Source of the DNA: a virus
Strand: one strand, 5' to 3'
Virus record (IMG/VR): IMGVR_UViG_3300022213_000004
DNA length: 64,000 nt
The first letter of the stretch is position 1, and each line of letters begins with the position of its first letter. Below, piece by piece: positions 3,001 through 64,000 of the stretch. The translations under genes were made by a program, and so were the position numbers. A model generated the notes under the pieces. The model made no database searches, was not told the DNA's origin, and saw only the letters and a list, made by a program, of their open reading frames with translations.

Positions 3001-6000
3001 TTCAGTAAGTTCTTTAAAGGGTAGCGGGTGTATATTAAATGCAGAAACTAATACAATTGGAAAAATTAAAAAAATAAAAATAGTAGATGGTGGATTTGAT
3101 TTCACCTCAGATAAAACTTTAAGACCATATGCAGAATTTCCAGAGAATATAAAAATTGATAATTTATTTTCCATTGACAATATTGGAATATCTTCCCAAG
3201 GAAGAGGATACACAACTGCACCGAAACTTCTAGTTTTGGATGGAAGAACTAAAAAAGTAATACCATCTGATTTGAGTTATAAACTTGGAGATAATAAAGT
3301 AACGATTAAAATCAATGCCAAAGGATTAACTGATTCTATCCCAACAATAATCCCAACACAAAATTCAAATGGTATAGGAATAACGGACATAACATATAAT
3401 CCAACTACTAAAGAAGCAAAAGTTTATTTGCCATTTTCTTTCAGCGATATTGGAAACTTCGATGCCAATACATATCCAATTAGAGTCGGTGATAAAGTTT
3501 TAATTGAAAATATTAGTGTGGGTGTAAATTCTACATCTAAGGGATTTAATTCTTCAAATTATGAATATTCTTTATTCGCAATAAAAAGTATAGACTTAAA
3601 TATTGGTGGTGTTAGCGCGGTAACTTATAGTTTGGATGGATATCTCTCAGATTCTGAATCTCCAGGCATATATGACCCAATCAATTCTTCGGGAAGAATA
3701 GTTCCAGAGAGAAATTTTCCTACATTTGTACCAACAATTAAACAAGATGAATATAAAAAAGGAGAAACCGTAAGATCTAACGGTTCTCTTGGAGTTGTTG
3801 AAAACTGGGATCCAATTACCAAATATTTAAAAATATCATCAAAAAGCGACTTTAAAATTGGTAGCATTATAGAAGGATTGTCTTCAAAAACAATAGGAAC
3901 TGCATCATCAATAGTCGATTTTAATTCTCATGCAAAAACTGATTTTTCAATTAAAGTACTTGGTGGATGGGAGTCTAATGCTGGATTTTTAAATGATAAT
4001 GCACAGAGAATTCAAGATAGTTTGTACTATCAGAATTTTTCATATTCATTAAAATCAAGAGTTGACTATGATACTTGGAATGATGCTGTCAGTGCTTTAA
4101 ATCATACTGTCGGATTTAAAAAATACTCAGATTTTCAAATGGAGTCCAAACTAGATAATGATTTTAGTAATTTGTTTGTGGGTCTTTCTACAGATACAAC
4201 TGCCACTGATGTTAAAGTAGAACTGATTAGTTATGGCGATTTAAATTGTGTGACGGATTTTGATTTGGGAAGAGAAAATTATTTGAATCTAAATTCAAAA
4301 ATTGCAAGTAATAAAATATATTTTGATAACATACCTCTTACTGATTATTATGAGGCGAGAGGAAATAGGGTTTTACTAATAGATGATATTAGTCCATATT
4401 TTAATAGTGGAGAAAGACCAGAAAAATACTCCAATGTTTACAAGTTTAATATTAACACAACTAGATCTTTAAAGTTTCTTTCATATATTAGAGATAAACA
4501 ATTTACTGGACAAAGGCAAGTAATGTTGACATCTCTTATTCATAACGATTCATACGGTGCCATAAACCAATATGGAAGGATTGAAACTGCATATGATTTG
4601 GGTTCTTTTGATTTTATAGTTGATCAACCATTTGGAATTGTTCGTTTTTATCCTACAAGGTATACTATTAATAATTATGATGTTGCTTTATTATCATACA
4701 ATTTAGACGATGCTTTTACTGGAGTTGGAACAACAACAATTGGTTCAATTGTTAAAGTAGATACAAGTAATATATCTTCAACTGCCTCTACAATAAATGT
4801 TGTTAGTTTGGCAACTTCATACACTTCGGCTAAAATTTTAGTACAGATATACAGAGACAGTTTAAATTATCAATTTAATGAGCTAAATGTAGTTCACACA
4901 GGAACTAATGCATCTATTGATTTTATTGAATATGGAGAATTATCAACAAAGACAAGGACTACAGAGTCATCTGGTTATGGCACATATTACCCATACATTT
5001 CTGGTGGAAATCTAAAAATAGACTTTATACCAAATGTTTCTGTTGGAAATACTTTCTATATAAACACTGCAAATGTTGCTCTTGGTGATACAAATTCATC
5101 AGGAATTGGGACAATTGAACTAGAATATGGAGAAATAAGAGCAAATAGTGTTTCTATACCAAGCTCTCCAACACCGACTGCATCAACCATTTTGAGTTTT
5201 ACTGGGGAGCATGATTGTGCATATTGTTTAGTTCAAGTTTCTGACATTACAAATAATCGCTGTTCCTTTTCCGAAGTTATTTTGATAGTTGATGATGTAA
5301 CTTCAGAACCTTTAATAACAGAATATGGCAATGTTCAGACTTTTGCTGGTCTTGGTACAATTGGCGCATCAGTAACTGGAATTGGATCGACAACTCAACT
5401 GTTATTTACTCCGTTACCTAATATTCAAGTTCAGGTAAAAGTATATGCAAATTTACTTGGTCTTGAAGGTAGCGATATAAAATCATATCAATTAAGTAAC
5501 CTAAATGTGAGTTCTCAATATGGTTCTTATAGTGGTACTGAGGTTGACCAAGTAAGAACATTCAATTTAACTCACAAAGGATATCCTCTTTTTGAAAGAT
5601 ATTTTTCAGCATCCGATTCTTCGATTGTAGATTTATCAAGAAATACCATAAAAATTCCATCTCATTTTTATTCAACTGGAGAAAAAATAACATATGATGC
5701 CAACTTTGGAAATCCAATAGGAATAGCGACAACTACTATTGCAGGAATAGGTTCTACAACCATACTTCCAAGCACATTATATGTTGTAAATTTAAACAAC
5801 AATAAAATTAGAGTTGCAGCTTCTGCTTCTGAAGCATTAAGACCAATCCCCAACGTATTAAATCTAACTTCACTTGGTAGTGGAACACAGCATAAATTTT
5901 TATCTCAGAATAAAAATTCTAGATTGGTAGTTGCTATTGATAATATTATTCAATCACCAATAGTGGCCACAGGATTAACTGCATCGTTGACATCTCCAGT

Positions 6001-57861: not shown

Positions 57862-58395
57862 CTAAACATTTTTTTTCTTTTTGTACCTAACATACCATCC
57901 CGTGTATCTTCCGGTCTTATAATTTCCATTATTTTCGCCAGATACATCTGAGTAATCTCTTTGTTTGCGAGTTCCATTCTCATAAGATTTTTTTAAACTT
58001 TCACTTCTTTTTATATTGCTTTCTATTGAATTGGTTTTTCCTTTTCTGTTTGAAGTTTTTCCCTTTTTTGCAAGTGACATTTTTTCTTTAGTTTCTTTTG
58101 AGAATTCTTTAGCAGTTTCTCCACCGCTTGTTAAATTGTATCCTTCAATCATAGTGTTATAAAAACTTATCCAATATGATTCTCTTTCATCTAAAATATC
58201 AGGTGAACACTCTTCTAGAATTTCGATTCTAAAATCTTCTCTTGCGTATTTTCTCATCGCTTTGTATAATGGTCTCGTAAGATTAACATTTTTAGATGAT
58301 ATGAAGTGTTGAGATATTCTTTTTGATAATCTTTGTTTGGTTTGTCCTATGTATTTTTTTCCACTAGGACTTTCTATGGAATAAATTATCGCCAT
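57862..58395 (-). CDS. GIY-YIG homing endonuclease with NUMOD3
   Basis: IIYSIESPSGKKYIGQT...RISQH...AMRKY...ERESYWI...GYNLTSGG; minus-strand TAAATA at 58428-23 overlaps the gp43 ATG. Confidence 0.88.
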   Translation of the reverse strand: MAIIYSIESPSGKKYIGQTKQRLSKRISQHFISSKNVNLTRPLYKAMRKYAREDFRIEILEECSPDILDERESYWISFYNTMIEGYNLTSGGETAKEFSKETKEKMSLAKKGKTSNRKGKTNSIESNIKRSESLKKSYENGTRKQRDYSDVSGENNGNYKTGRYTGWYVRYKKKKNV

Positions 58396-58427: not shown

Positions 58428-59705
58428 ATGTCTTTAAGGTTTTATACTAATGTTCAGTTGATTGGAAATCAATTTTTGGTTCGTGGAGTAGATAATGGAA
58501 AAAGATTTGAAACTAGAGATGAGTTCTTCCCAACTCTCTTTGTAAAAACTAAAAAAGATTCTAAGTATGGAACATTAAGTGGAGAAGCAGTAGAACCAAT
58601 TAATCCTGGAACAGTAAAAGATTGTCGAGAGTTCTACAAAAAGTATGATGAAATTGATGGATTTGAGATCTATGGAAATGATCGATATATCTATCAATAT
58701 ATTTCAGAAAAATATCCAGAGGATGAAATCAAGTTTGACATTAGTAAAATTAAACTTGTAACTTTGGATATTGAGGTTGCTTCTGAAGCAGGATTCCCTG
58801 ATGTAGAATCTTGTTCTGAAGAAATTCTTGCAATCACCATCCAAGACTATACAACTAAGAAAATTGTTACTTGGGGAGTAAAACCTTTTAATCATAATCG
58901 TAAGGACTTGACTTATCACCATTGTCCTTCTGAATATGAACTTCTTAATCATTTCATCAACTATTGGATGTTCAATGTTCCAGATGTAATTACTGGATGG
59001 AACATTCAGATGTATGATGTTCCTTATATTTGCAAACGTCTGAATCGTGTGCTTGGTGAAAAATTGATGAAACGTTTTTCCAACTGGGGATTAGTTACGG
59101 AGGGAGAAGTATTCATTAATGGTCGTAAGCACACTGTGTTTGATGTTGGTGGATTGACTCAACTTGATTATCTTGACCTTTATAAGAAGTTTACTTATAA
59201 GGCACAAGAATCTTATCGTCTTGATTACATTGCTGAAGTGGAACTTGGGCAGAAAAAACTTGACCACTCCGAGTTTGACACCTTCAAGGATTTTTATACT
59301 CAAGGATGGCAGAAGTTTATTGAGTATAACATTGTTGACGTGGAACTTGTTGACCGATTGGAAGACAAGATGAAACTCATTGAGTTAGCACTCACCATGG
59401 CTTATGATGCTAAGGTAAATTATGCTGACGTTTTCTATCAAGTGAGGATGTGGGATAATATTATCTACAATTATCTTAAGAAACGTAACATCGTTATCCC
59501 CCCGAGGAATAAATCCCAGAAGAACGAAAAATATGCGGGGGCATATGTCAAGGAACCAATTCCGGGAAAGTATGACTACGTGGTAAGTTTTGACTTGAAT
59601 TCACTTTATCCGCACTTGATTATGCAATATTCAATTTCGCCCGAAACTCTTGTGAGTATGGATGATATTAATAATCGTATTGCGGAATTAGAAAAAATGT
59701 TGTAG
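58428..59705 (+). CDS. gp43: DNA polymerase gp43, N-terminal subunit (gp43A: 3'-5' exonuclease through motif A)
   Basis: ExoI LDIEV, ExoII TGWNIQMYD, ExoIII YNIVDV, YAGAYV, motif A SFDLNSLYPHLIMQYSISPET, then a short tail and TAG. Confidence 0.93.
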   Translation: MSLRFYTNVQLIGNQFLVRGVDNGKRFETRDEFFPTLFVKTKKDSKYGTLSGEAVEPINPGTVKDCREFYKKYDEIDGFEIYGNDRYIYQYISEKYPEDEIKFDISKIKLVTLDIEVASEAGFPDVESCSEEILAITIQDYTTKKIVTWGVKPFNHNRKDLTYHHCPSEYELLNHFINYWMFNVPDVITGWNIQMYDVPYICKRLNRVLGEKLMKRFSNWGLVTEGEVFINGRKHTVFDVGGLTQLDYLDLYKKFTYKAQESYRLDYIAEVELGQKKLDHSEFDTFKDFYTQGWQKFIEYNIVDVELVDRLEDKMKLIELALTMAYDAKVNYADVFYQVRMWDNIIYNYLKKRNIVIPPRNKSQKNEKYAGAYVKEPIPGKYDYVVSFDLNSLYPHLIMQYSISPETLVSMDDINNRIAELEKML

Positions 59706-59747
59706 AATATCCACACATTATAAATAATAAAGTGTGGATAAAACTAA

Positions 59748-60308
59748 ATGCAACCAAAATTCAATATAACAAAAGAACAGTTAAAACAACTTTATATTGT
59801 TGATAACAAAAGTAGAAAAGAGTGTGCTGAATTTTTTGGTTGTTCTGACCCACTTATTAAGCAAAAAATACAAAAATATGGGTTGCAAAAACCTAAACAT
59901 TTGGAGAACAAAAATAAAGAAAGAAAAGAAACTCTTTTTTGTGAAAATTGTGGTTCTCCATTCACTGTAAGTAGATTTAGAGCAACAAGTGAAAAATGGA
60001 AACTTCGGTTTTGTTCTCATTCTTGTTCTTCTAAATTTAGATATTTGGGTGAAGAGCATAAAAGAGCGGTTTTGAATTCTATTTCTGCTCGCAGAAGATG
60101 TAGAATGAGAGATGCTTTTGATGAAACTTCAAACCAACAAAAAATAAATGAAATATATTGCGAAGCAAAAAGATTAACTGAAGAAACTGGTATTCCTCAC
60201 GAAGTAGACCATATTATTCCAATTTCAAAAGGAGGAAAACATCACGAAGATAATTTACAAATTATCACGATGAGTGAAAATCGTAAAAAACATAGTAAAA
60301 TTATCTAA
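59748..60308 (+). CDS. HNH homing endonuclease (HTH + Zn finger + HNH) within the split gp43 locus
   Basis: LKQLYIVDNKSRKECAEFFGCS; CENC...FCSHSC; HEVDHIIPISKGGKHHEDNLQIIT..EN. Confidence 0.88.
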   Translation: MQPKFNITKEQLKQLYIVDNKSRKECAEFFGCSDPLIKQKIQKYGLQKPKHLENKNKERKETLFCENCGSPFTVSRFRATSEKWKLRFCSHSCSSKFRYLGEEHKRAVLNSISARRRCRMRDAFDETSNQQKINEIYCEAKRLTEETGIPHEVDHIIPISKGGKHHEDNLQIITMSENRKKHSKII

Positions 60309-60309
60309 A

Positions 60310-60474
60310 ATGACTTACGAAGAAGAATACCAACCAAGAAATAGAGAAAAATCAAAACAAGCAAAATATGGAATGATATGGTGTGCTTATTGTGATAGAG
60401 ATATGGTAGGAGATATTGGTAAATGTTCTTACTGTGGAAGATTTAATAACAGAAAGAAAATTCGCTATGAGTAA
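60310..60474 (+). CDS. Small Zn-ribbon protein (54 aa) within the split gp43 locus
   Basis: MTYEEEYQPRNREK...WCAYCDRDMV...KCSYCG; overlaps the gp43B start. Confidence 0.65.
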   Translation: MTYEEEYQPRNREKSKQAKYGMIWCAYCDRDMVGDIGKCSYCGRFNNRKKIRYE

Positions 60475-61825
60475 TAATATGTGGAAAGATGTTCGTAAAA
60501 TGTCTTCTAAAGAAATTAAAGAAGAGTTGGAGGCACTTAAGAAAGTAAGAGAACTTTCTAATAAAGCAAATGTAGATAAACTCCTAAAACAAGAGTTAGA
60601 TTTAGAACCTTTACAAAAGGTAAATCTTACTATGACTGCTAATGGAGCACTTTATCGCAGAGTAAAAGGTATGCTTCCCGAACTAATGGAAAAAATGTAT
60701 CAAGACCGAGTAATCTTCAAGAAGAAAATGATTGAAGCGAAAAAAGAATATGAGAAAACCAAGAACAAAGAACTTGTAAAAGAAATTGCCCGTTGTAATA
60801 ATATTCAGATGGCAAAGAAGATTTCTCTGAATTCTGCTTATGGTGCTATTGGGAACCAGTATTTCCGTTATTATAAACTTGAGAATGCTGAAGCAATTAC
60901 TCTTTCAGGTCAAGTCGCAATTCGTTGGATTGAAGGTAAGTTAAATCAATATCTCAATAAACTTCTTAAAACTCAGGACGTTGATTATGTTATTGCTTCA
61001 GATACTGATTCCGTTTATCTTAATATGGGTCCTGTGGTTGAAACTGTATTCAAAGGAAGAGAGAAAACTACTCAAAGCATTGTTTCGTTCCTTGATAAGG
61101 TCGCTTCAATGGAACTTGAAAAATATATTGAAAGTTCTTACCAAGAACTGGCTGACTATGTGAATGCGTATGACCAGAAGATGCAGATGAAGCGTGAGAA
61201 CATTGCTGATCGTGGAATATGGACTGCTAAGAAGCGTTATATTCTCAATGTATGGGATAGTGAAGGTGTTCGCTATGAAGAACCTAAACTGAAGATGATG
61301 GGTATTGAAGCAGTTAAGTCTTCAACCCCTGCCCCTTGTCGAAAGATGATTAAAGATGCTCTTAAGTTGATGATGAGTGGAACTGAAGATGAAGTGATTG
61401 AATTTATTGATAAGTGTCGTGAAGAATTTAAAAAACTTCCACCTGAACAAATATCATTTCCACGTTCAGCATCTGATGTTCAAAAATATAAATCTTCTGC
61501 AGACATTTATATCAAAGGCACTCCCATTCATGTTCGTGGGGCATTATTGTTTAATCACTATATTAATATGAATAAACTTACAAATAAGTATTCTCTTATT
61601 CAGAATGGAGAAAAAATCAAGTTTATCTATTTAAAAAAACCAAATATTATTCATGAGAATGTAATTTCTTTCATTCAAGAGTTTCCAAAAGAACTCAACC
61701 TTGACAAATACATAGATTATGAATTACAATTTGAGAAAGCATTTCTAGAACCACTCAAGATTATTCTTGATTCGATTGGGTGGAGTGTAGAAAGGACTAA
61801 TAGTTTAGAATTATTTTTTGTATAA
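60467..61825 (+). CDS. gp43: DNA polymerase gp43, C-terminal subunit (gp43B: fingers, motifs B and C, thumb)
   Basis: Likely start MSNNMWK; TANGALY, motif B KISLNSAYG, motif C SDTDS, AKKRY, C-terminal clamp-binding SLELFF. Confidence 0.92.
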   Translation: MSNNMWKDVRKMSSKEIKEELEALKKVRELSNKANVDKLLKQELDLEPLQKVNLTMTANGALYRRVKGMLPELMEKMYQDRVIFKKKMIEAKKEYEKTKNKELVKEIARCNNIQMAKKISLNSAYGAIGNQYFRYYKLENAEAITLSGQVAIRWIEGKLNQYLNKLLKTQDVDYVIASDTDSVYLNMGPVVETVFKGREKTTQSIVSFLDKVASMELEKYIESSYQELADYVNAYDQKMQMKRENIADRGIWTAKKRYILNVWDSEGVRYEEPKLKMMGIEAVKSSTPAPCRKMIKDALKLMMSGTEDEVIEFIDKCREEFKKLPPEQISFPRSASDVQKYKSSADIYIKGTPIHVRGALLFNHYINMNKLTNKYSLIQNGEKIKFIYLKKPNIIHENVISFIQEFPKELNLDKYIDYELQFEKAFLEPLKIILDSIGWSVERTNSLELFFV

Positions 61826-62849: not shown

Positions 62850-63392
62850 ATGATAAAGATTCTAAAAACAGGCATTAATGTATTTAAAGTTGTAAATCAA
62901 CTTAAAAAATATCCACAGGATTGGGATCATCAGAAACATCTGAAGAATTCTCAGTCCTTAGTTGATAGAGGATTTGCTGACTTGCCAGTGAGTGCTCTTC
63001 AACTTATAATGGGTGGGGTTAAAAGTAAAAAAGACTTTGTTGGAGATTCTGAAATCAACATCAAAACTCCAGCATACGAACATCACAGTGAAATCAGAAA
63101 GATTATACGCAAGCACTTTGGGAATAGAGAACTACATCGTTGTGGATTTCTTTCTCTTCCTGTTGATGAAATCGTTGGTGCTCACATTGATGAAGGTACT
63201 TATTACTTAACAAGAGACAGATATCATCTTTCCATTGTTGGAAGATATCAATATTTCTGTGGAACTGATAGCGTGATTATAGAACCTGGAACTCTTTTGT
63301 GGTTTAATAATAAGATACCTCATGGAGCCGTAAATATCGGTGATGAAACAAGAATAACCTTTGTATTTGATATGCCACATGGACCAAGTTGA
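62850..63392 (+). CDS. 2OG-Fe(II) oxygenase (aspartyl/asparaginyl beta-hydroxylase-like)
   Basis: HxD motif AHIDEG, RYHLSI, WFNNKIPHGAVN...RITFVFD. Confidence 0.85.
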   Translation: MIKILKTGINVFKVVNQLKKYPQDWDHQKHLKNSQSLVDRGFADLPVSALQLIMGGVKSKKDFVGDSEINIKTPAYEHHSEIRKIIRKHFGNRELHRCGFLSLPVDEIVGAHIDEGTYYLTRDRYHLSIVGRYQYFCGTDSVIIEPGTLLWFNNKIPHGAVNIGDETRITFVFDMPHGPS

Positions 63393-64000
63393 ATTTCTTA
63401 TTCTCCGTAATCTTTTACATAATGAGCAATATATTAGAAAAGTAATACCTTTCATCAAATCTGAATATTTTGAAGATCAAAATCAAAAGATTGTATTTGA
63501 AGAAATACTTTCTTTTGTTCAAGAATATAATCAACCAGCAACAAAAGAAGTTCTCTGCATTGAGGTTGAGAAAAGAGCAGATATTAATGAGCAATCTTTC
63601 AAAGAAATCATTCAAATAATTTCTTGCCTAGAAGATGTTCCAGCAGAATTTAATTGGTTAGTTGATACTACTGAAAAATGGTGTCGTGATCGTGCCATTT
63701 ACTTGGCACTTATGGAATCTATTCATATTGCTGATGGAAAGGACGAAAAAAAGAATCGTGATAGCATTCCTTCTATTCTCTCTGATGCTCTTGCTGTAAG
63801 TTTTGATAATCATATCGGACACGATTACTTACAGGATTATGAACAAAGATATGAGTCTTATCATAAAAAGGAGGATAAAATTGAATTTGATCTTGAGTAC
63901 TTTAACAAAATCACGAAAGGTGGTCTTCCTAACAAGACTCTCAATATTGCTCTCGCTGGTTGTGTTCATCCAGAAACCAAAGTTAAAATTAGGTTTAGGA
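63379..64000 (+). CDS. gp41: Replicative helicase gp41, 3'-truncated by window edge, interrupted by an intein; not in ORF track
   Basis: Manual translation MDQVEFLILRNLLHNEQYIRKVIPF...TTEKWCRDRAIYLAL...ALAVSFDNHIGHDY...KITKGGLPNKTLNIALAG. Confidence 0.93.
   Translation, partial: MDQVEFLILRNLLHNEQYIRKVIPFIKSEYFEDQNQKIVFEEILSFVQEYNQPATKEVLCIEVEKRADINEQSFKEIIQIISCLEDVPAEFNWLVDTTEKWCRDRAIYLALMESIHIADGKDEKKNRDSIPSILSDALAVSFDNHIGHDYLQDYEQRYESYHKKEDKIEFDLEYFNKITKGGLPNKTLNIALAGCVHPETKVKIRFR
63961..64000 (+). mobile_element. Intein N-terminus (block A) inserted in the gp41 Walker A motif
   Basis: After LNIALAG the expected TGVGKS is replaced by CVHPETKVKIRFR, a typical intein start C-[VL]-x-x-[DE]-T-x-V. 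Confidence 0.8.

Follow-up and report, generated by a model that had tools for sequence, protein, structure and literature searches.

How can an essential DNA polymerase be assembled when its gene has been broken open around a homing endonuclease gene? The question is raised by positions 58428 to 61825 of IMG/VR virus record IMGVR_UViG_3300022213_000004, a stretch of 64,000 nucleotides (the window). The locus is gp43, the gene of the family-B replicative DNA polymerase of a T4-like cyanophage, present as two cistrons, gp43A and gp43B, with an HNH endonuclease gene and a small open reading frame (ORF) between them. A model's reading of the letters alone (the original prediction) had proposed that the two products are rejoined by acquired complementary helices rather than by splicing. 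The explanation that best accounts for the locus, and which is considered probable as a whole, is that a mobile cassette split the gene at the loop of a helical hairpin, that the two chains reassemble, that the resulting module is transferred between phage lineages and that the nuclease gene can afterwards decay.

According to this explanation, a freestanding homing-endonuclease cassette would have entered the loop of a lineage-specific helix-loop-helix insertion in the polymerase. Its entry would have created a stop codon after the first arm, leaving the latter as a tail on gp43A, and a new start codon before the second arm, leaving it as a head on gp43B. The two polypeptides would be made separately and reassemble non-covalently via the large native palm interface, while the hairpin arms probably still pack in an antiparallel fashion, adding affinity and register. 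Both of these last steps are proposed by analogy with the two-chain polymerases of Aeromonas phages 44RR2.8t (44RR) and 25.

Division of the polymerase gene

The four ORFs of the original prediction (gp43A, the HNH gene, a small CxxC ORF and gp43B) were all recovered from the ORF list and Pfam searches. gp43A (59705 being the last position of an ORF that begins at 58428, forward strand) encodes 425 amino acids comprising the N-terminal domain, the 3'-5' exonuclease domain and the first part of the palm including motif A. The assignment is based on matches to Pfam DNA_pol_B_exo1 (E 1.6e-20) and DNA_pol_B (E 1.2e-12) and on an alignment to residues 188-432 of RB69 gp43. Residues D114, I115 and E116 (the DIE exonuclease motif), D389 and SLYP 392-395 are invariant among homologues, the last two belonging to motif A (family pattern DxxSLYPS). 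gp43B (60479-61825, forward strand) encodes 448 amino acids, matches Pfam DNA_pol_B and aligns to residues 531-897 of T4 and RB69 gp43; it carries the head, the remainder of the palm, the fingers with motif B (K114-G122), motif C and the thumb. Among its homologues K114, N118, S119, Y121 and G122 of motif B (KxxxNSxYG) and D175, T176, D177 and S178 of motif C (DTDS) are conserved. The catalytic aspartates had been predicted to lie on separate chains and do so: D389 of motif A (59592-59594, forward strand) is on gp43A, whereas D175 and D177 of motif C (61001-61009) are on gp43B. From chain length, the two separate products are estimated at about 49 and 52 kDa.

Alignment to the intact gp43 proteins of S-SRM01, P-SSM2, RB69 and T4 placed the cut directly after the sequence SPETL, corresponding to a position behind I430 of RB69. 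This site belongs to the first segment of the palm, past motif A and ahead of the fingers. The alignment to intact cyanophage gp43 that had been suggested as a check delimited the extra residues to 17 on gp43A and 27 on gp43B. The tail, V409-L425, comes after SPETL (59652-59702, forward strand) and the head occupies the first 27 codons of gp43B (60479-60559, forward strand), of which residues 1-8 (MWKDVRKM) occur only in split forms. This length follows from a revised start codon. gp43B had been predicted to begin with MSNN at an in-frame ATG at 60467, which is indeed present upstream, whereas the start common to more than 100 homologues is the MW at 60479. The gap between the gp43A stop and the gp43B start, previously put at about 760 nucleotides, measures 773.

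Conservation of the new termini

Protein searches identified the tail, with the consensus V-x-x-x-[DE]-[LIV]-N-x-R-I-A-E-L-E-[KS]-M-L, on dozens of gp43A proteins of 415-435 amino acids, and the head, with the consensus MWKDVRKMSxxEIxEELEALKxVRELS, at the beginning of more than 100 gp43B proteins of 448 amino acids. R417, I418, L421 and E422 were invariant in 34 distinct tails, as were M1, W2, K3, D4 and M8 of the MWKDVRKM extension in split forms. The ratio of nonsynonymous to synonymous substitution rates (dN/dS, Nei-Gojobori method) amounted to 0.19 in the tail and 0.17 in the head, compared with 0.08 and 0.13 for the flanking core, figures that are rough since synonymous sites are close to saturation. 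These low ratios indicate that both termini are translated and under purifying selection.

The original prediction had described both termini as amphipathic with heptad-like spacing. Their helicity and conservation were borne out, whereas amphipathicity proved weak when judged by statistics alone: compared with shuffled sequences, the hydrophobic moment of the tail gave p values of approximately 0.08-0.16 and that of the head a p value of 0.017. The hydrophobic residues of the tail (M411, I414, I418, L421 and L425) are spaced 3-4-3-4 over about two heptads. gp43B modelled alone with AlphaFold2 (AF2) contained a helix at residues 10-29, at a mean predicted local distance difference test score (pLDDT) of 88.9 for the whole chain. 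Conservation is stronger evidence for the termini than the hydrophobic-moment statistics.

These data bear on the alternative that fares best after the proposed explanation, namely that the native palm, fingers and exonuclease interfaces suffice to hold the halves together and that the arms have no role in assembly, the hairpin being simply a surface location at which a cut was tolerated. The halves of the 44RR and 25 polymerases, which are cut at the fingers tip, are functional and show no obvious added termini (PMC2988022); moreover, the tail is short and weakly amphipathic, and standard intact gp43 is without the hairpin altogether. On the other hand, purifying selection acts on tail and head, also in loci that have lost the endonuclease gene; an N-terminal extension, MWKDVRKM, is conserved in split forms and absent from contiguous forms; and both arms are retained in all of the 75 split loci. 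A purely passive role for the arms is accordingly regarded as unlikely.

Origin of the hairpin

A search of longer proteins yielded contiguous gp43 proteins of 855-881 amino acids that carry the tail, a loop and the head within a single chain, and more were obtained from a scan of viral contigs. One belongs to a cultured phage, Synechococcus phage S-CAM7 (NC_031927), whose hairpin-bearing gp43 is annotated as 867 amino acids. The hairpin is an insertion of approximately 32 amino acids; the tail aligns to its first arm and residues 9-27 of the head to its loop and second arm. All that sets split forms apart here is about 11 residues, namely KML in the tail and MWKDVRKM in the head. In an AF2 model of a contiguous metagenomic protein, P0242 (mean pLDDT 90.4; template modelling score 0.89 against RB69 gp43), the block consists of a helix at 409-421, a loop at 422-426 and a second helix at 427-441, with pLDDT values of 81-94 over the hairpin and 81-91 for helix 409-421, the homologue of the tail. 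The sequence comparison and this model together suggest that the helices are mostly older than the split and that the cut lies in the hairpin loop. The claim of helices acquired for repair of the break was thus not upheld: both arms are already present in one chain in the contiguous clade, S-CAM7 included, and only the 11 or so residues mentioned above are new.

A tree built from the module alone places four contiguous lineages outside a single group containing all split modules. On the most economical interpretation, the hairpin existed first and the endonuclease gene entered its loop later. The opposite order, in which the helices were gained de novo with the endonuclease as a purpose-built zipper and the contiguous hairpin polymerases are later re-fusions, appears very improbable. 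It would accommodate the contiguous forms of P0043 and P0242 type, which lie very near the split modules, as well as the weak support for the branching order. It is difficult to reconcile with at least four separate contiguous lineages outside the split modules, with one contiguous clade of 21-22 diverse sequences that has a support of 1.0 in both half-gene trees and 0.915 in the module tree, and with the occurrence of the same hairpin in cultured S-CAM7 (which was left out of the trees). Furthermore, the contiguous loops are alike in sequence, which argues that they are not the product of independent deletions.

Another origin considered for the tail was a degenerate duplicate of the native sequence VTVDKILNQEL. 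In a MAFFT alignment 5 of 17 residues matched, and the candidate was rejected, as the contiguous hairpin forms explain the tail better.

Two variants found in the course of these searches are noted separately. P0043, from ENA contigs, is a contiguous hairpin-bearing gp43 with a frameshift at the fingers tip followed by an ORF of 290 amino acids; the same protein, without any difference, is encoded by two contigs, each from another sample, and its 90% cluster has 55 members. The frameshift could be a sequencing error, or P0043 could be a pseudogene or an additional case of splitting. On account of the frameshift it was rejected as a clean re-fused gene and used as a sequence variant only. In the other case (L047, IMGVR 3300020198_000153, positions ~4920-5115), an otherwise intact gp43 has approximately 60 extra residues in the fingers region. 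The match to gp43B is interrupted between residues 80 and 101, and this is a separate insertion situated approximately at the Aeromonas cut site.

Evidence against splicing

No intron was identified between 57500 and 62500 in Rfam searches at E values up to 1. Intein landmarks were likewise absent: the tail starts with Val rather than Cys, Ser or Thr, the head is without His-Asn and a following nucleophile, and no Pfam intein domain was matched. The extra termini amount to 17 and 27 amino acids, compared with a total of about 100 residues or more for intein blocks. The original prediction of neither intron nor intein at the locus therefore held. Spacers of only 47 nucleotides, found in other split loci, are too small to hold an intron. 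Together, the selected termini, the persistence of the split after loss of the nuclease gene and the 47-nucleotide spacers argue strongly against splicing. The further claim that a homing-endonuclease cassette occupies an essential gene without RNA or protein splicing is in agreement with these searches, in which no evidence of splicing was found.

It is consequently extremely unlikely that a single chain is restored, whether by a group I or group II intron, by translational bypass or by an unrecognised split intein. Translational bypass does exist, as in T4 gene 60. Split inteins, moreover, fracture other cyanophage replication genes (PMC2677866). The empty Rfam result, the occurrence of spacers of 47-108 nucleotides, the absence of an intein nucleophile or His-Asn and the selection of tail and head as protein all speak against restoration, as do contigs from RNA libraries. 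One of these passes uninterrupted from the gp43A stop into the HNH gene, and the only joint seen was a replacement of 202 letters, described below, and not a splice; the RNA-library runs cover small parts of the stretch (shares of 0.07-0.13), the uncovered parts being uninformative.

An assembly chimera, which would have undermined the original prediction, can be excluded. Positions 59454-60823 were matched without mismatch by a contig of 1,370 nucleotides from another marine metagenome run, and the stretch was present in 16 runs listed as DNA (the DNA or RNA kind of a run being guessed by the search tool). These runs belong to at least 9 studies and sample metagenomes of estuarine, freshwater and marine origin. 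The idea of a dead gene or artefact in a phage relying on another polymerase has next to no probability, given 75 loci on contigs of up to 232 kb, the 16 runs and at least 9 studies, and two halves whose frames are open over their full length, with every catalytic motif present and dN/dS low.

Mobility of the module

In the scan of viral contigs, both ends of the split were identified at 75 independent loci, one of them that of the window. In trees of the N-terminal and C-terminal parts of the polymerase, split and standard intact forms were interleaved at many well-supported nodes. Outside the junction the window protein is 90-100% identical to three intact alleles (L008, L009 and L013), whereas the junction itself resembles split forms only.

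Comparison of the window with contig IMGVR 3300010354_003911 delimited the transferred module. Only 4 mismatches were observed in 59619-60678 (1,060 bp, forward strand, 99.6% identical), whereas the flanks are 75-90% identical, with dense mismatches up to 59618 and after 60678. The tract begins at gp43A codon I398 (within SLYPHLIMQY), ends at gp43B codon P67 (within LPELM) and spans the tail, the RNA hairpin behind the gp43A stop, the HNH gene, the zinc-ribbon ORF and the head. The moving unit hence consists of the first arm, the stop codon, the RNA hairpin with its late-promoter box, the endonuclease gene with or without cargo, the start codon and the second arm; with its recombination joints in the ultra-conserved motifs SLYPHLIMQY and LPELM on either side, it substitutes for the standard 43-codon segment of intact alleles. 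The ending of the tail follows the type of cassette, being ELESML in 14 of 14 GIY-type loci and mostly ELEKML in HNH-type loci. Tail and head vary little, and this linkage to cassette type confounds any covariation between them.

What is probably an intact, empty-site allele of a near-identical backbone was encountered in an RNA-library contig (run X17). Over 59320-59575 this contig is identical to the window; the 1,098 letters that follow in the window are replaced in the contig by 202 others, a length that corresponds to the standard segment, and 22 differences to the window occur downstream (60674-60900).

A near-identical tract within diverged flanks and a polyphyletic distribution fit homing with co-conversion, at the level of sequence comparison. 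The HNH nuclease would presumably cut intact alleles and thereby drive the transfer. It is possible, though put forward tentatively, that because the arms travel with the endonuclease a single homing event converts an intact polymerase into a two-chain enzyme joined by an imported helix pair. If true, the homing cassette would bring along what its host needs to survive the insertion, and the imported helix pair would add to introns and inteins a third means by which a selfish nuclease can reside inside an essential coding sequence, one that works by non-covalent complementation at the protein level.

A polymorphism was also observed within the co-transferred tract, at codon 402 of gp43A (59631-59633). 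The intact alleles inspected read MQYNISPETL, with the exception of S-SRM01 (MQFNVSPETL), whereas S or A (G in one case) replaces N in all but two split forms and in all contiguous hairpin forms. The change could be a nuclease target or an immunity polymorphism.

Exchange and decay of the endonuclease gene

The HNH gene of the window (59748-60308, forward strand) encodes a freestanding homing endonuclease of 186 amino acids that has a helix-turn-helix at its N-terminus, a cluster of Cys residues internally and an HNH motif at its C-terminus. It matched Pfam HNH (PF01844) with 36.6 bits against a cutoff of 21.4 (E 4.9e-9), HTH_28 weakly, and the HNH and endonuclease VII families of PHROG. The second gene in the gap, a zinc-ribbon-like cargo ORF of the form CxxC...CxxC (60310-60474, forward strand, 54 amino acids), was taken from the ORF list and had weak Pfam matches only. 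It probably starts with the ATG at 60310, one base past the HNH stop, and ends 4 nucleotides ahead of the gp43B start.

Gap contents varied between the 75 loci. An HNH gene stood alone in 35, was accompanied by the zinc-ribbon ORF in 8, by a Dam methyltransferase gene (PF05869, 2.8e-30) in 4 and by an ORF of 78 amino acids in 1. A GIY-YIG-like gene (PHROG homing endonuclease, 2.6e-9) was found in 14 loci, and its product has a C-terminal helix-turn-helix resembling the N-terminal helix-turn-helix of the HNH protein. The remaining 13 loci were without an endonuclease gene; their spacers of 47, 96, 108 or 171 nucleotides contain recognisable 3' remnants of an HNH or GIY gene. The endonuclease gene has therefore been exchanged, between HNH and GIY-YIG-like types, or has decayed to a 3' remnant of 47-171 nucleotides, and gp43 remains in two pieces after this decay.

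In the spacers of the window and of four further loci (L006, L166, L178 and L180), the stop or last codons of the upstream ORF lie 1-5 nucleotides ahead of the gp43B ATG. The remnant may be retained because it supports translation of gp43B, through coupling and a GGAG in the last codons.

The Dam-type N6-adenine methyltransferase gene is an observation in its own right. It lies behind the HNH gene at 2524-2976 in L160 and also in L149, L170 and L172, where it takes the place of the zinc-ribbon ORF.

Several observations weigh against the proposed explanation. The monophyly of split modules is weakly supported (0.53), since the module alignment is short, and with such support the contiguous forms could be secondary re-fusions. 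The split head is absent from deposited cultured phage genomes. The tail is only about two heptads long and its amphipathicity statistically unexceptional, and residues 1-9 of gp43B were modelled at lower AF2 confidence. Movement of the module could also result from general recombination between the conserved motifs on either side, with no endonuclease involved, and the RNA-library contigs may come from contaminating DNA.

Comparison with known systems

The nearest precedent is the split gp43 of Aeromonas salmonicida phages 44RR2.8t and 25, in which the polymerase is encoded by gp43A and gp43B (Petrov, Ratnayaka and Karam 2010, as cited in PMC2988022 and PMC2993671). The two halves of the phage 25 enzyme are described there as co-purifying and active (PMC2988022), and how the halves of split T4-type polymerases find each other is named as an open structural question in the same source. 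The likeness drawn in the original prediction is correct in kind: both systems have a T4-type family-B polymerase on two adjacent cistrons, cut at the tip of a helical hairpin. It does not extend to the site. In the Aeromonas phages the cut falls on the fingers tip (S-SRM01 residues ~477-483) and lies some 70 residues downstream from the one described here, which indicates that the Aeromonas and cyanophage splits are independent events. The interruptions also differ. 44RR has a short spacer only and phage 25 a freestanding GIY-YIG seg-type endonuclease gene and a group I intron, whereas the split here lies in an accessory palm hairpin, has HNH or GIY-YIG-like cassettes and no intron, and has spread as a mobile module over many environmental cyanophage lineages.

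The nearest precedent for the HNH gene is Aeh1 nrdA, which is split by mobE and for which the term 'genes in pieces' has been used (Friedrich et al. 2007, cited in PMC2988022 and PMC2677866). In both cases a freestanding HNH endonuclease gene lies within an essential coding region, and in Aeh1 two chains form an active enzyme in the absence of splicing. The present locus conforms to that arrangement, the gene being contiguous in relatives and the freestanding endonuclease gene lying between two open halves. It differs in the host gene, and neither a pre-existing hairpin nor conserved new termini are reported for nrdA. The nrdA split is known from one phage, whereas here the endonuclease gene turns over across many lineages.

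The fractured genes described by Dassa et al. (2009, PMC2677866), in which an endonuclease gene separates two halves bearing split inteins, are similar in that cyanophage-like replication genes from metagenomes are broken around a homing endonuclease gene and that endonuclease-less variants exist. Such genes are rejoined covalently by trans-splicing inteins, whereas the split gp43 has no intein blocks. The closest relatives of the split form itself are the contiguous polymerases of S-CAM7 and the metagenomes, which have the same insertion site and homologous arms. Further junction features are common to both, namely S or A for N before ISPETL, the sequence TMTANGA and a one-residue deletion before LPELM. 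The S-CAM7 type differs in being a single chain with a loop of 5-10 residues, no endonuclease gene and no MWKDVRKM. The 'split DNA polymerase' of a T7-like cyanophage lineage was considered as a description of the same thing and rejected, as it concerns a different enzyme family.

No description of this cyanophage gp43 split was found in the literature. What is new is the split site and the spread of the module, within the already known 'genes in pieces' arrangement. Split T4-type polymerases are otherwise known from a few Aeromonas phages, and the locus provides a second, independent split site, with much natural variation for study. The natural evidence on the origin, mobility and decay of the split is unusually rich: there are hundreds of variants with conserved termini, the contiguous relatives show the termini as they were before the cut, and every stage of endonuclease gain, exchange and decay is covered. 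A segment of an essential core gene can pass between phage lineages as a cassette, a finding relevant to studies in which g43 serves as a marker for cyanophages. If the arms drive assembly, the system would represent a natural case of helper-assisted fragment complementation and offer a compact natural pair for building split enzymes.

Organisation of the spacer and neighbouring genes

An RNA hairpin is predicted behind the gp43A stop at 59699-59754 (forward strand; folding energy -17.1 kcal/mol, z -5.9). Its inner stem is formed by 59708-59716 and 59732-59740, its outer stem pairs the last gp43A codons with the region of the HNH start codon, and its loop bears the T4-type late-promoter box TATAAATA (59719-59726). 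The box was present right behind the gp43A stop in 37 of 40 distinct spacers bearing a homing endonuclease gene, and the spacers inspected from both types of cassette contain a similar hairpin sequence. Across the window TATAAATA was not enriched (10 observed, 7.7 expected), so that its meaning derives from the conserved position only. A scan for sigma-70 promoters and terminators gave nothing above shuffled sequences. The hairpin and late-promoter box may have a regulatory role. In T4, I-TevI is under the control of a late promoter and a hairpin, and the spacer arrangement here is similar. Aeh1 mobE is also said to be regulated by a late promoter and hairpin, reportedly in work by Gibb and Edgell from 2007.

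The reverse strand carries another freestanding homing endonuclease gene at 57862-58395, which is of the GIY-YIG type, contains a NUMOD3 motif and matches PHROG homing endonuclease at E 3e-24. It is divergent from gp43A and lies 32 nucleotides upstream of its start; together with the HNH cassette, it leaves the polymerase gene both flanked and interrupted by nuclease genes. Downstream of gp43B, the gp41 helicase ORF (63361-64000, forward strand) continues past the end of the window, its translation reading ...LNIALAG and then CVHPETKVKIRFR.

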